Shown here piece by piece: positions 16,075-29,484 of a DNA stretch of 64,000 nucleotides. The stretch is from Actinomycetes bacterium (GTDB taxonomy: Bacteria > Actinomycetota > Acidimicrobiia > Acidimicrobiales > RAAP-2), in the NCBI GenBank assembly GCA_021828055.1, contig JAKATH010000001.1, forward strand, positions 16,707 to 80,706, read 5' to 3'. The translations under genes were made by a program, and so were the position numbers. The notes beneath the pieces are model-generated. The model saw only the letters and a program-made list of their open reading frames with translations, was not told the DNA's origin and did not search any database. Every line of letters starts with the position of its first letter. Positions within the stretch are counted from its first letter, which is position 1.

Positions 16075-16653
16075 CTACCCCTCTAGTTCCTGGTCCTGGT
16101 GCTTCTGCCGCGCAGCCGCCGACTGCTTGGCGCGCCTGTCCGGCGCCAGCACCATCACCATGTTCCTGCCGTCGAGCCGGGGCTCCGCCTCGATCTTGGC
16201 GGTGCCGTCCGTCTGCTCGGCGATCCTGTCGAGGATCCGCTTCCCGAGCTCGGGGTGGAAGACCTCGCGCCCTCGGAACATGATCGTGATCTTGACCTTG
16301 TGGCCGTCCTCGAGGAACCTCGCCACCTGCCGGGTCTTGGTCTCGAAGTCGCCGGGCCCGATCTTGGGCCGGTACTTCATCTCCTTCAATCCGACGTGGA
16401 CGGTCTTGCGCCGGCTCTCCTTGGCCCGTTGCGCCTCGTCGAACTTGAACTTTCCGTAGTCCATGATCCGACAGACGGGCGGGTTGGCCATCGGGGCCAC
16501 CTCGACGAGATCCATGTCGAGCCCTCTGGCGATGCTCAGCGCCTCGGGCAGCAGCTTGATCCCGAGCTGCTCCCCGTCCGGGGCGACGAGGCGGACCTCG
16601 CGTGCCCGGATGCGGTCGTTGATCCGGTGCTCAGGTGCAGTGGCAGTGACGAT
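16075..16653 (-). CDS. infC: translation initiation factor IF-3 (non-canonical ATC start inferred)
   Basis: The track ORF starts at MDLVEV, but the frame upstream encodes the conserved RINDRIRAREVRLVAPDGEQLGI. No ATG/GTG/TTG is available. ATC 16653 lies 10 nt after GAGAGG; ATC 16623 is the alternative. Confidence 0.8.
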   Translation of the reverse strand: MVTATAPEHRINDRIRAREVRLVAPDGEQLGIKLLPEALSIARGLDMDLVEVAPMANPPVCRIMDYGKFKFDEAQRAKESRRKTVHVGLKEMKYRPKIGPGDFETKTRQVARFLEDGHKVKITIMFRGREVFHPELGKRILDRIAEQTDGTAKIEAEPRLDGRNMVMVLAPDRRAKQSAAARQKHQDQELEG

Positions 16654-16822
16654 GCGGCATCGTCCTCTCTATCTCGGGCCGGCGGTCCTTCCGCGACCAC
16701 GATCTGGCAAGCGGAGCCGTACCCGACCGGGCAATGCCACGTCGACCCGGCGCACTGTGCGTGGCCGGGTGGAGACCCCTCGTCGAGCGGGCCCCGCTTC
16801 CTCGACTCCATAGGCTACCAGC

Positions 16823-22333: not shown

Positions 22334-23281
22334 CTACGAGCCGCCGAGCCGCTCGCCGCCGACCGGGCGCGCGCCACGCAGCCATTCGGCCGCGCGCATG
22401 GGCGCTCTCCCTTCGGGCTGCACCCGCAGCAGCTGCAGCGCGCCGCGCCCGGTGACGGCGGTGGAGCCGACGAGGGACCCGGGCGCCGCCCCGACGCCGG
22501 CCGCCCCGACGCCGGGCGTCGCGACCGCCTCGGCGTCCAGCACGAGCAGCCGCCGCCCCCGCCACGTCGTCCACGCGCGGTCCAGGCGCACGACCCGTGC
22601 GAGCTCGGCAGCCGGCCGCGACCATGTGAGCCGGAGCTCTTCGGGGTCGAGCTTCTCCGCGTACGTCGGCTCGCCGGCTTGCGGCAGGGGCTCGGCGAGC
22701 GGGCGGCCGAGCACGTCGACGAGGAGGCGGGTGCCGACCTCGACGAGACGGCCGCGCAGCGACCCGAGGTGCTCGCCGGGCGCGATCTCGACCTCCCTGC
22801 TCGCGTACAGCGGGCCGGTGTCGAGCTCCTCTGCGAGCGCCATGACGCACACGCCGGTCACCGCGTCGCCGGCGAGGATCGCCCGCTCGACCGGCGCCGC
22901 GCCGCGCCAGCGCGGGAGCAGCGAGAAGTGGAGGTTCACCATCGGGAGCCGCTCCAGGACCGGCCCGGGGACGACGCGGCCGTAGGCGACCACGACGCCG
23001 AGCTCGGCACCCGCGTCGGCGACCGCGTCGAGCGCGTGGGCGACCGGGAGCCCGAGCTGCTCGGCCTCCGCCTTCACAGGGCTCGCGGAAGTGCCCGCTC
23101 CCCTGCCGCGCCGGCGGTCGGGCCGGGTGACCACGAGCCGCACGTCGTGCCCGGCCCGCACGAGCGCGCGCAGCGGCGTCACCGCGAGGGCAGGCGTGCC
23201 GAGGTAGACGAGCCTGCGGCTCGCCGCCGCCGGCGCGCCGGCCGTCTTCGTGCTCGCGGCGCCCGGTCCCCGCTCGCTCAG
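22334..23281 (-). CDS. fmt: methionyl-tRNA formyltransferase (start unresolved; CTG 23281 proposed)
   Basis: HFSLLPRWRGAAPVERAI motif. The conserved N-terminal RLVYLGTPALAV lies upstream of the first canonical start (GTG 23182). See the def-fmt finding. Confidence 0.75.
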   Translation of the reverse strand: MSERGPGAASTKTAGAPAAASRRLVYLGTPALAVTPLRALVRAGHDVRLVVTRPDRRRGRGAGTSASPVKAEAEQLGLPVAHALDAVADAGAELGVVVAYGRVVPGPVLERLPMVNLHFSLLPRWRGAAPVERAILAGDAVTGVCVMALAEELDTGPLYASREVEIAPGEHLGSLRGRLVEVGTRLLVDVLGRPLAEPLPQAGEPTYAEKLDPEELRLTWSRPAAELARVVRLDRAWTTWRGRRLLVLDAEAVATPGVGAAGVGAAPGSLVGSTAVTGRGALQLLRVQPEGRAPMRAAEWLRGARPVGGERLGGS

Positions 23282-23302
23282 CGCCCGGTCCCCGCTCGCT
23301 CA
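23259..23302. repeat. perfect tandem duplication, 22 bp x2
   Basis: GCGCCCGGTCCCCGCTCGCTCA x2, between def and the conserved part of fmt. Confidence 0.95.
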
Positions 23303-23308
23303 GCGCTC

Positions 23309-23363
23309 GATCACCCGGCGATCACCCGGCGAGCACGCGGCGATCACCCGGCGAGCACGCGGG
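23309..23363. repeat. tandem duplication, 22 bp x2.5, of the def 3' end including its stop codon
   Basis: GATCACCCGGC + GATCACCCGGCGAGCACGCGGC + GATCACCCGGCGAGCACGCGGG. The real def stop is 23344-23346. Confidence 0.95.
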
Positions 23364-28244: not shown

Positions 28245-28601
28245 CTAGCCCGCCGGCGGTCGCTCGTCGATGACCGCGGGGTCCTCCCCGAAGGCGCCGC
28301 CCGCCACCGCCGCCTGCATCGCCTCGCTGAACGCCCGCTCCTCGCCGTCGTCCTCTTCCTCGGGCTCCCGCTCGTACTCGATCTTGTCGGCGGCGATCTC
28401 CTCGAAGGCGATCGAGAGCGGCTTGCCCGACACCGAGGTCACCTGTGGCGGGACGATCCGGCCGAGCCCCTCGCCGAGGCTGTTGTAGTAGGCGTTGATC
28501 TGCCGCGCCCGGAGCGCGCCGAGCGCGACGAGGGTGAACTTCGAGTCCACCTTGTCGAGCAATTGCTCGATCGGGGGGTCCATCAGGGTGCTACGGGCCA
28601 T
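28245..28601 (-). CDS. rpoZ: DNA-directed RNA polymerase subunit omega
   Basis: IEQLLDKVDSKFTLVALGALRARQIN. The start overlaps the gmk end by 11 nt (a start at Met7 is possible). Confidence 0.9.
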   Translation of the reverse strand: MARSTLMDPPIEQLLDKVDSKFTLVALGALRARQINAYYNSLGEGLGRIVPPQVTSVSGKPLSIAFEEIAADKIEYEREPEEEDDGEERAFSEAMQAAVAGGAFGEDPAVIDERPPAG

Positions 28602-29145
28602 CGGCGTCCTTTCCGCGGATCTTGGACACTATACCGGCCAGCTCCTGCACGGCCCGGTCCAGGTCGCCGTTGACGACCACGTGCTGCGCGAGCTCTCGGC
28701 CGCGCGCCACCTCCTCACGGCCCTTGTCGAGCCGGAGCCGGACCTGCGCCGCCGGGTCGCCGCGGGCGACCAGCCGCGCCTCCTGGACCTCCGCGGACGG
28801 CGGCAGGAGGAGCACCACCACCGCGTCCGGGCACCTCGCCACGACCTGCTCGGCGCCCTGGAGGTCGATCTCGAGGAGCACGTCGGCGCCGGCCGGGGGG
28901 TCCGGCGTCGGCGTCCCGTAGAGGTTGCCGAGGTACTCGGCCCACTCGAAGAACCCGCCCTCGGCGATCCGGCGGCGGAATTGCTCCGGCGTCGCCCACA
29001 CGTAGGCGTCCTCGGCCTCGCCCGGGCGCCGTGGTCGCGTCGTCCAGGATCGGCTCAGCCACAGATCGGGCACCCGCGCTCTGAGCGCGCCCGCGACGGT
29101 GCCCTTGCCTGCACCGCCGGGGCCGATCAGGACGAACGTCGTCAG
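28591..29145 (-). CDS. gmk: guanylate kinase (CTG start inferred)
   Basis: P-loop GPGGAGKG (29101-29124) lies upstream of the first canonical start (GTG 29073). SRSWTTRPRRPGE and EWAEYLGNLYGT. CTG 29145 is in CTGA overlap with the mihF stop. Confidence 0.85.
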   Translation of the reverse strand: MTTFVLIGPGGAGKGTVAGALRARVPDLWLSRSWTTRPRRPGEAEDAYVWATPEQFRRRIAEGGFFEWAEYLGNLYGTPTPDPPAGADVLLEIDLQGAEQVVARCPDAVVVLLLPPSAEVQEARLVARGDPAAQVRLRLDKGREEVARGRELAQHVVVNGDLDRAVQELAGIVSKIRGKDADGP

Positions 29146-29462
29146 CGCGAGGCGGTCTGTTCGAGGAGGTCGGCCCGCTGCTTGGCCCCCAGGCCCTGCA
29201 GCCGGCGGCTCTCGGCGATCCCGACGGCGCCCATGAGCCGGCGCGCCTTCACCTTGCCGAGCCCCGGAAGGGACTCGAGCACGGAGACGACCTTCATCTT
29301 CCCGACGGTCTCGTCGGACTCCGCCTGGTCCAGGAGCTGGGCAAGGGTGAGGGAGCCCATCTTCAGCCTCTCCTTCACCTCCGCCCGCTCCCGTCGCACC
29401 TTGGCGGCTTTCTCCAGCGCGGCTTGACGCTGCTCGGCGGTGAGTGCGGGGGGTTGCGGCAT
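29142..29462 (-). CDS. mihF: actinobacterial integration host factor
   Basis: MPQPPALTAEQRQAALEKAAKVRRERAEVKERLK...VLESLPGLGKVKARRLM. Position before gmk matches mycobacterial synteny. Confidence 0.88.
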   Translation of the reverse strand: MPQPPALTAEQRQAALEKAAKVRRERAEVKERLKMGSLTLAQLLDQAESDETVGKMKVVSVLESLPGLGKVKARRLMGAVGIAESRRLQGLGAKQRADLLEQTASR

Positions 29463-29484
29463 GTGCCGACTGTAGCCTCCCTGC

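Follow-up and report, generated by a model that had tools for sequence, protein, structure and literature searches.

The window analysed here is a stretch of 64,000 nucleotides from a soil actinobacterium of the order Acidimicrobiales in which the genes pyrF-mihF-gmk-rpoZ-coaBC-metK follow one another in this order; the three central genes are read from the minus strand. The gene mihF (29142..29462) codes for an actinobacterial integration host factor of 106 amino acids (NF041260 actino_IHF, 131.5 bits; PF22525) whose translation runs from the ATG at 29462 to the TGA at 29144-29142. Some gene callers shorten MihF to 72 amino acids (L089-L092). A −10-like hexamer of the TANNNT type, TACAGT (29469..29474), is found 6 nt 5′ of the mihF ATG. 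The gene rpoZ (28245..28601; TIGR00690, 54 bits) starts with ATG at 28601 and is preceded by its own Shine-Dalgarno (SD) sequence (GGAAAGGA). Between mihF and rpoZ lies the guanylate kinase gene gmk (28591..29145), recognized by its matches to PF00625, TIGR03263 and PDB structures. It codes for 184 amino acids when read from a CTG codon (29143..29145), ends with the TAG stop at 28593-28591 and overlaps the 5′ end of rpoZ by 11 nt. The CTG is proposed here as the gmk initiation codon from an order-wide comparison and from the NCBI coding sequences of relatives.

The 3′ end of mihF reads ...GCC TCG CGC TGA, and the CTG at 29145-29143 has its TG in common with this stop codon (CTGA), as the preliminary description had stated for the minus strand. 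From CTG the gmk frame continues with ACG ACG TTC GTC CTG ATC and then GGC CCC GGC GGT GCA GGC AAG GGC. It is translated as L-TTFVLI-GPGGAGKG, the product following the CTG being TTFVLIGPGGAGKG. The first ATG, GTG or TTG of this frame is the GTG at 29073 (29071..29073), which is codon Val25 and lies 17 codons past the first Gly of the Walker A motif (P-loop) GPGGAGKG (29101..29124); the preliminary description was thus right in placing the P-loop 5′ of every canonical start. The frame is open for ~113 codons 5′ of the CTG, or 120 codons when counted from the first P-loop Gly, and holds no canonical start over that distance. The figure of about 15 other stop/start overlaps in the window, given at the outset for ATGA and GTGA junctions, is roughly right: a tally based on a crude gene map yields 12 overlaps of the canonical NTGA type (five ATGA, six GTGA and one TTGA) plus three one-base overlaps of the TGATG type, so that coupling would be routine in this genome. 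The CTGA and the lack of NTG codons are not beyond chance as a bare pattern. The chance of 24 codons without NTG is estimated at ~0.4 if ~4% of codons are assumed to be NTG, and at 74% GC a TGA is often preceded by C. The significance of the arrangement rests on gene function and on the comparison with relatives, not on the pattern itself.

The protein started at CTG is a divergent guanylate kinase. Its residues 3-174 align with positions 4-180 of the 182 of PF00625 (72 bits, cut-off 25.2) and with positions 3-179 of the 180 of TIGR03263, where the score of 140 bits stays under the equivalog cut-off (160.45) and indicates the divergence. The best PDB match has an E value of 3e-29, and the alignment of 27 solved chains, of which 25 are guanylate kinases and two are MAGUK p55, begins at query residue 2-4. 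Residue 4 of the yeast Guk1 chain (1ex6, 186 amino acids) pairs with query residue 4, a precedent for a Gmk in which strand beta1 is preceded by just three or four residues. Initiation at GTG 29073 would leave the protein without beta1, without the P-loop and without the greater part of helix 1. The GMP-binding motifs are all intact (SRSWTTR, Y, EWAE..YGT, IDxQG and RLxxRG), and the conserved elements present in the window Gmk are GPGGAGKGT, SRSWTTR, AYVW, EWAEYLGNLYGT, EIDLQG and RLVARGD; this set includes the P-loop solely if translation begins 5′ of GTG 29073. The P-loop of the window has Gly where most Gmk carry Ser (GPSG), and 82 of 84 relatives share this Gly.

The segment upstream of GTG 29073 evolves as a coding sequence. 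Across 84 genomes the P-loop varies little or not at all at its residues G, P, G, G, K, G and T; its fifth position is Ala in 72 genomes and either Val or Thr in the other 12, and all four synonymous codons are used for Gly, Pro and Thr. Invariance of the protein combined with variation of synonymous codons shows that this DNA is translated. Codons −5 to +16, numbered back from the first P-loop Gly with the Ile of FVLI as −1, give pS 0.38 and pN 0.09 within the clade of the window (pN/pS 0.24), the signature of purifying selection. The counterpart of GTG 29073 is GTA in L087 and GTC in L088, both close relatives, and this codon is therefore not maintained as a potential start; its position inside the protein also makes it implausible in that role.

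The start region was compared in 87 Acidimicrobiales genomes. Eighty species-representative loci came from GTDB genomes, among them Illumina and Nanopore MAGs as well as one closed chromosome, and six further loci were added through exact protein look-up; in a protein search, 3985 relatives passed E <= 1e-10. The homologous start codon is CTG in 47 genomes, TTG in 8, GTG in 6 and ATG in one, while 25 have none of these. At codon −6 the corresponding species counts are CTG 36, TTG 7, GTG 4 and ATG 1; CTC occurs there once, with a GTG as the next codon, and CTT, CTA and TTA never. The clade of the window carries one additional codon, its CTG being at −7. Exchange with TTG, GTG and ATG at a homologous position is the behaviour of a near-cognate start codon. 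Absence of any ATG, GTG or TTG ahead of the P-loop points the same way and is found in the window; among the 84 genomes classified, 31 carry CTG and lack a canonical start both over 20 codons and in the open frame upstream. Fitch parsimony on a neighbour-joining protein tree reconstructs CTG at the root with ~20 changes, and CTG is present in every major branch. The CUG start thus appears to be ancestral and to have been retained in much of the Acidimicrobiales, in about half of the species examined.

Restriction of this position to NTG is seen most directly in its leucine codons: 43 are NTG against one CTC, while the internal Leu at −2 has 21 against 41 and the NTG share of Leu in gene bodies is 54% (Fisher 2e-12, a statistic that ignores shared ancestry). 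Synonymous sites nearby are well mixed, Val at −3 being GTC in 40 genomes, GTG in 34, GTA in 4 and GTT in 4 with 23 parsimony changes. At the level of these comparisons, the start position is limited to NTG. In-frame stops two or three codons 5′ of the CTG occur in L069 and L076 (TGA TCC TCG CTG ATC) and in L043 (TGA GCC GAA CCG CTG ATA), and they confine the start to CTG or the next ATH codon. Many relatives share a conserved GAR CCN ahead of the CTG. The embedded mihF stop codon accounts for this sequence in the 25-nt class, and the reading of GAR CCN as coding sequence elsewhere was rejected on account of in-frame stops. Profile and structure alignments, purifying selection, codon restriction across the order and upstream in-frame stops together support an N-terminus at CTG or within a codon or two of it. 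The alignment of Gmk orthologues proposed at the outset as a check thus places the expected N-terminus at or near the CTG, and the same four lines of evidence bear out the earlier argument that a kinase deprived of its P-loop is implausible and that a CTG start is the simplest reading.

The start has probably moved or changed several times within the order. Most of the ~25 genomes without NTG at the position have GTG at −3 and are called as “MLIGPGG”, and in five the choice is reduced to ATC or ATT at −5. One sub-lineage (L018-L021, L034, L037, L038, L047, L049, L052-L054, L058, L059, L080, L084) lost the NTG, which is replaced by CAC, CGC, CGT or AAG, and kept the ATC, ATT or ATA that follows; at its GC content, Ile is rarely encoded by ATT or ATA. 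In eleven of its species a GTG precedes the P-loop Gly by three codons, and five lack any canonical start, which implies that they start at an ATH codon. In L036, a Nanopore MAG (CAVSNH010000003.1) that reads CCG TTT CTC TTC GTT CTC TTC GGC, no canonical or near-cognate start codon was found close enough to the P-loop; either a Nanopore base error in the T run or a further exception may account for this.

These species lend some weight to a start at another non-canonical codon close by, ACG 29142-29140, ACG 29139-29137 or an equivalent of ATC, next to which the CTG would be incidental: in about 17 species CAC, CGC or AAG followed by ATC, ATA or ATT replaces any NTG at the position, five of them being without a canonical start. 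Moreover, the codon after CTG is ACG or AGG in all members of the clade of the window, and among the protein records of three related MAGs at NCBI, P0001 and P0004 begin gmk at CTG while P0003 (L088) begins it at ATC, two codons past the CTG. We nevertheless regard this placement as improbable. The third codon, ACG 29139-29137 in the window, varies within the clade (ACG, GTC, ATC or ACC), E. coli initiates less well on ACG and AGG than on CUG, and the occurrence of CTG, TTG, GTG and ATG at one position across the order points to that very codon.

No SD sequence was found by duplex energy upstream of the gmk CTG, either in the window or across the order. Assuming a generic anti-SD sequence, the duplex formed within the 18 nt 5′ of the gmk start has −0.4 kcal/mol in the window, compared to −10.4 for mihF and −8.1 for rpoZ; the order median for gmk of −2.4 is weaker than the −3.2 of random positions. 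The lack of an own ribosome-binding site and the bases common to stop and start on the same strand are two hallmarks of translational coupling. No terminator-like site was found between mihF, gmk and rpoZ. Each of the 20 species inspected has a TANNNT hexamer ~6 nt (5-7 nt) 5′ of the mihF ATG, a scan for E. coli-type promoters found nothing, and TANNNT shortly before ATG is the layout of leaderless actinobacterial mRNAs. This organization suggests that the mihF-gmk-rpoZ transcript is leaderless, in which case the GGGAGG farther upstream of mihF would not act as an SD sequence.

The CTGA overlap is found in the whole clade of the window (the window itself, L006-L009, L086-L088, L089, L091 and L093), and about ten related species keep it though adjacent synonymous sites vary. 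An independent CTGA, at a different mihF end (...AAG TCC TGA / CTG ATC CTC), occurs in a second clade, which comprises eight species. Many relatives have their CTG 4-60 nt 3′ of the mihF stop (4 nt in the “TGAGCCACTG” class), still without SD. Termination-reinitiation, advanced in the preliminary description, thus fits the clade of the window with its 4-nt overlap and missing SD but does not extend to the many species with a downstream CTG, and coupling by overlap cannot be the general mechanism across the order. What the lineage has in common is a weak gmk start, devoid of SD and located directly behind mihF, rather than the overlap as such.

If programmed frameshifting or readthrough of the stop codon gave a MihF-Gmk fusion, no separate gmk initiation would be needed. 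The gmk frame is indeed open throughout mihF in the window, and mihF and gmk share one frame in L069 and L076, with TGA and two codons between them. Yet no slippery heptamer is present at ...GCC TCG CGC TGA, no Rfam element matches the junction and its predicted fold is unremarkable (z = +0.6). The frame offset from mihF to gmk is 0, 1 or 2 depending on the species with spacings of 17 to 101 nt, and L043 has an in-frame stop in the spacer from the mihF stop to the CTG. Frameshifting or readthrough was rejected as a general mechanism on these grounds and has very little probability here.

An error of sequencing or assembly, or a decaying pseudogene used from GTG 29073 or a later codon while the real gmk lies elsewhere, might be read into the 160- and 136-amino acid products of public gene callers and the sub-threshold TIGR03263 score, but is hardly credible given that the P-loop and beta1 are under purifying selection, that the GMP-binding motifs are intact, that GTG 29073 is not kept as GTG and that the junction DNA is identical over 161 bases in five assemblies, four ENA metagenome assemblies and the NCBI MAG GCA_027411535.1. 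These assemblies have an identical MihF, and their gene caller output the 136-amino acid Gmk. The feature also occurs in Illumina and Nanopore genomes and in one closed chromosome of relatives, OY969604.1. A corrected sequence that reveals a canonical start, a refutation envisaged in the preliminary description, is excluded by the five independent identical assemblies together with the CTGA kept in related species. No second gmk was found within the 64,000-nt window.

Initiation at the CUG 29145-29143 is therefore the reading we favour: gmk is very probably translated from this codon by fMet-tRNA, in the window by termination-reinitiation after mihF. In the proposed sequence of events, 70S ribosomes would translate a presumably leaderless mihF mRNA and terminate at its UGA, and some of them would then reinitiate two bases downstream on the CUG with fMet-tRNA to yield the 184-amino acid guanylate kinase, (f)M-TTFVLIGPGGAGKG. 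Reinitiation appears the most likely route because the CUG has two bases in common with the mihF stop and lacks an SD sequence. Decoding by fMet-tRNA and dependence on mihF termination are the parts that we infer. If the initiator tRNA reads the CUG, the N-terminus is expected to be TTFVLIGPGGAGK (Met removed) or (f)MTTFVLIGPGGAGK; decoding as Leu would give LTTFVLIGPGGAGK.

It may be speculated that CUG is a deliberately weak start that holds Gmk far below the abundant nucleoid protein MihF. Local conservation is confounded in the clade of the window, where the C of the CTG is the third base of the last mihF Arg codon and the TG belongs to the stop. A synonymous change of the last mihF codon (CGC to CGG, or TCC to TCG) would create GTG and is seen in none of the ~18 genomes of the two overlap clades; across the order CTG exceeds GTG about 8 to 1, though third-position G and C are about equally common. 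This excess is consistent with selection for a weak start and could also reflect shared ancestry.

Two other genes of the window have unusual starts. A GC3 sliding-window estimate of coding boundaries was abandoned for truncated genes, being too blunt (overshoot of 20-30 codons), and the N-terminus of profile matches was used instead on ten suspicious ORFs. In infC (16075-16668, minus strand) the match to the IF3 profile TIGR00168 begins at residue 12 of the open frame, and the first ATG, GTG or TTG is found at residue 52 (ATG 16515). The likely start is ATC 16653-16651, ~10 nt past the SD-like AGAGAGGA, which is a non-canonical infC start of the classic type. A 9-codon uORF initiated by ATG (from 16660) overlaps this ATC in another frame. 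In fmt (22334-23299, minus strand), coding for Met-tRNA formyltransferase, the conserved RRLVYLGTPALA lies 5′ of the first canonical start, GTG 23182, and CTG 23281-23279 is the only upstream start of translation table 11. The related loci compared for fmt were L089-L092 and L095-L174. In most of 80 metagenomic relatives, the Gly of the conserved GTP motif is preceded at a distance of seven codons by ATG or GTG. L098, L099, L100 and L160 have CTG at this usual start codon and lack a canonical start; in the clade of the window the codon is AGC, GTC, GCT or GGC, and no canonical or shared near-cognate start codon was found for fmt in this clade. In-frame stops lie 13-14 codons upstream of the GTP motif in L091 and L095, and the frame offset from def to fmt varies among relatives. 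The def-fmt spacer (23259-23362) holds two tandem arrays. The first (23259-23306), a 22-nt unit present 2.2 times with 100% identity, yields both an in-frame TGA and an in-frame CTG upstream of fmt; the second (23308-23362), an 11/22-nt unit present 5/2.5 times, re-copies the last def codons and stop (gtgctcgccgggtga). An exact-protein look-up for def and fmt contigs of the same species found no record. The state of fmt, with CTG at the start in some members and no canonical or shared near-cognate codon in the clade of the window, underlies a broader idea, namely that the CUG of gmk is an anciently selected, IF3-sensitive control of the Gmk:MihF ratio within a leaderless operon and the symptom of an unusual start-codon regime of the whole lineage. 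We consider this rather unlikely.

CTG is a permitted start of translation table 11. In E. coli, CUG reaches ~1-2% of AUG initiation (0.02-3% depending on the construct) and is grouped with the near-cognates of 1-2%, all other codons giving 0.1-1% (Hecht et al., bioRxiv 10.1101/063800). The CUG of gmk resembles these rare starts (CTG, ATT, ATC and ATA) as a near-cognate codon read by initiator tRNA, but whereas that work brought together reporter data and scattered annotations, gmk presents an apparently ancestral CUG on an essential gene in a clade at the level of an order. In M. tuberculosis, Ribo-RET found CTG not to be enriched at start sites (PMC9094748), so its use is no general actinobacterial habit. 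A literature search found no paper on a CTG start of gmk or on CTG starts specific to Acidimicrobiia or Actinobacteria, and CUG does not occur in the text of a 2025 review (PMC12548453).

Coupling at 4-nt stop/start overlaps is experimentally established (Huber et al. 2019, PMC6728339), although GTGA and CTGA do not occur in the text of that study. The gmk junction shares with such NUGA overlaps the bases common to stop and start, the co-directional and operon-like arrangement and the missing downstream SD; it differs by using CUG in place of AUG, GUG or UUG and by the many relatives with non-overlapping genes whose CTG is 4-60 nt downstream.

A close parallel is infC with its AUU or AUC start. 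Both are housekeeping genes in which a weak near-cognate start is kept over long evolutionary distances, and both are shortened by gene callers limited to ATG, GTG and TTG, as happens for infC in the window too. Unlike gmk, infC has an SD sequence and an autoregulation in which IF3 discriminates against its own start, while gmk has a CUG, no SD, a position directly behind another ORF and no demonstrated regulatory loop. To our knowledge, few conserved near-cognate starts exist on essential bacterial genes besides infC. The actinobacterial cluster mihF-gmk-rpoZ, which we take to be Rv1388-Rv1390 in M. tuberculosis, has the same gene order as the window. Mycobacterial Gmk (PDB 1znw, 1s4q) has ~20 more N-terminal residues, so that its start, presumably canonical, is not directly before beta1. 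The gmk CUG is a well-supported and phylogenetically deep example of the known near-cognate starts and no new mechanism.

This finding has consequences for annotation. Many of the best 120 of the 3985 relatives, all of them Acidimicrobiales-type MAGs, were called as proteins of 160 or 136 amino acids without a P-loop. Dozens of Acidimicrobiales Gmk clusters (among them P0002, P0007-P0016 and P0018-P0023) are stored as N-terminally truncated products of 134-166 amino acids that lack it, and the Gmk of the window itself is stored at 136 amino acids. These truncated records are a systematic artefact of gene calling restricted to ATG, GTG and TTG. Metabolic reconstructions and checks for essential genes that need full-length domain matches can be misled by them; the NCBI pipeline already rescues some gmk genes with CTG or ATC starts. 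For the Acidimicrobiales, the gmk junction offers a natural system to test how reinitiating or 70S-type ribosomes act on weak start codons and whether such starts set the stoichiometry of proteins within operons.
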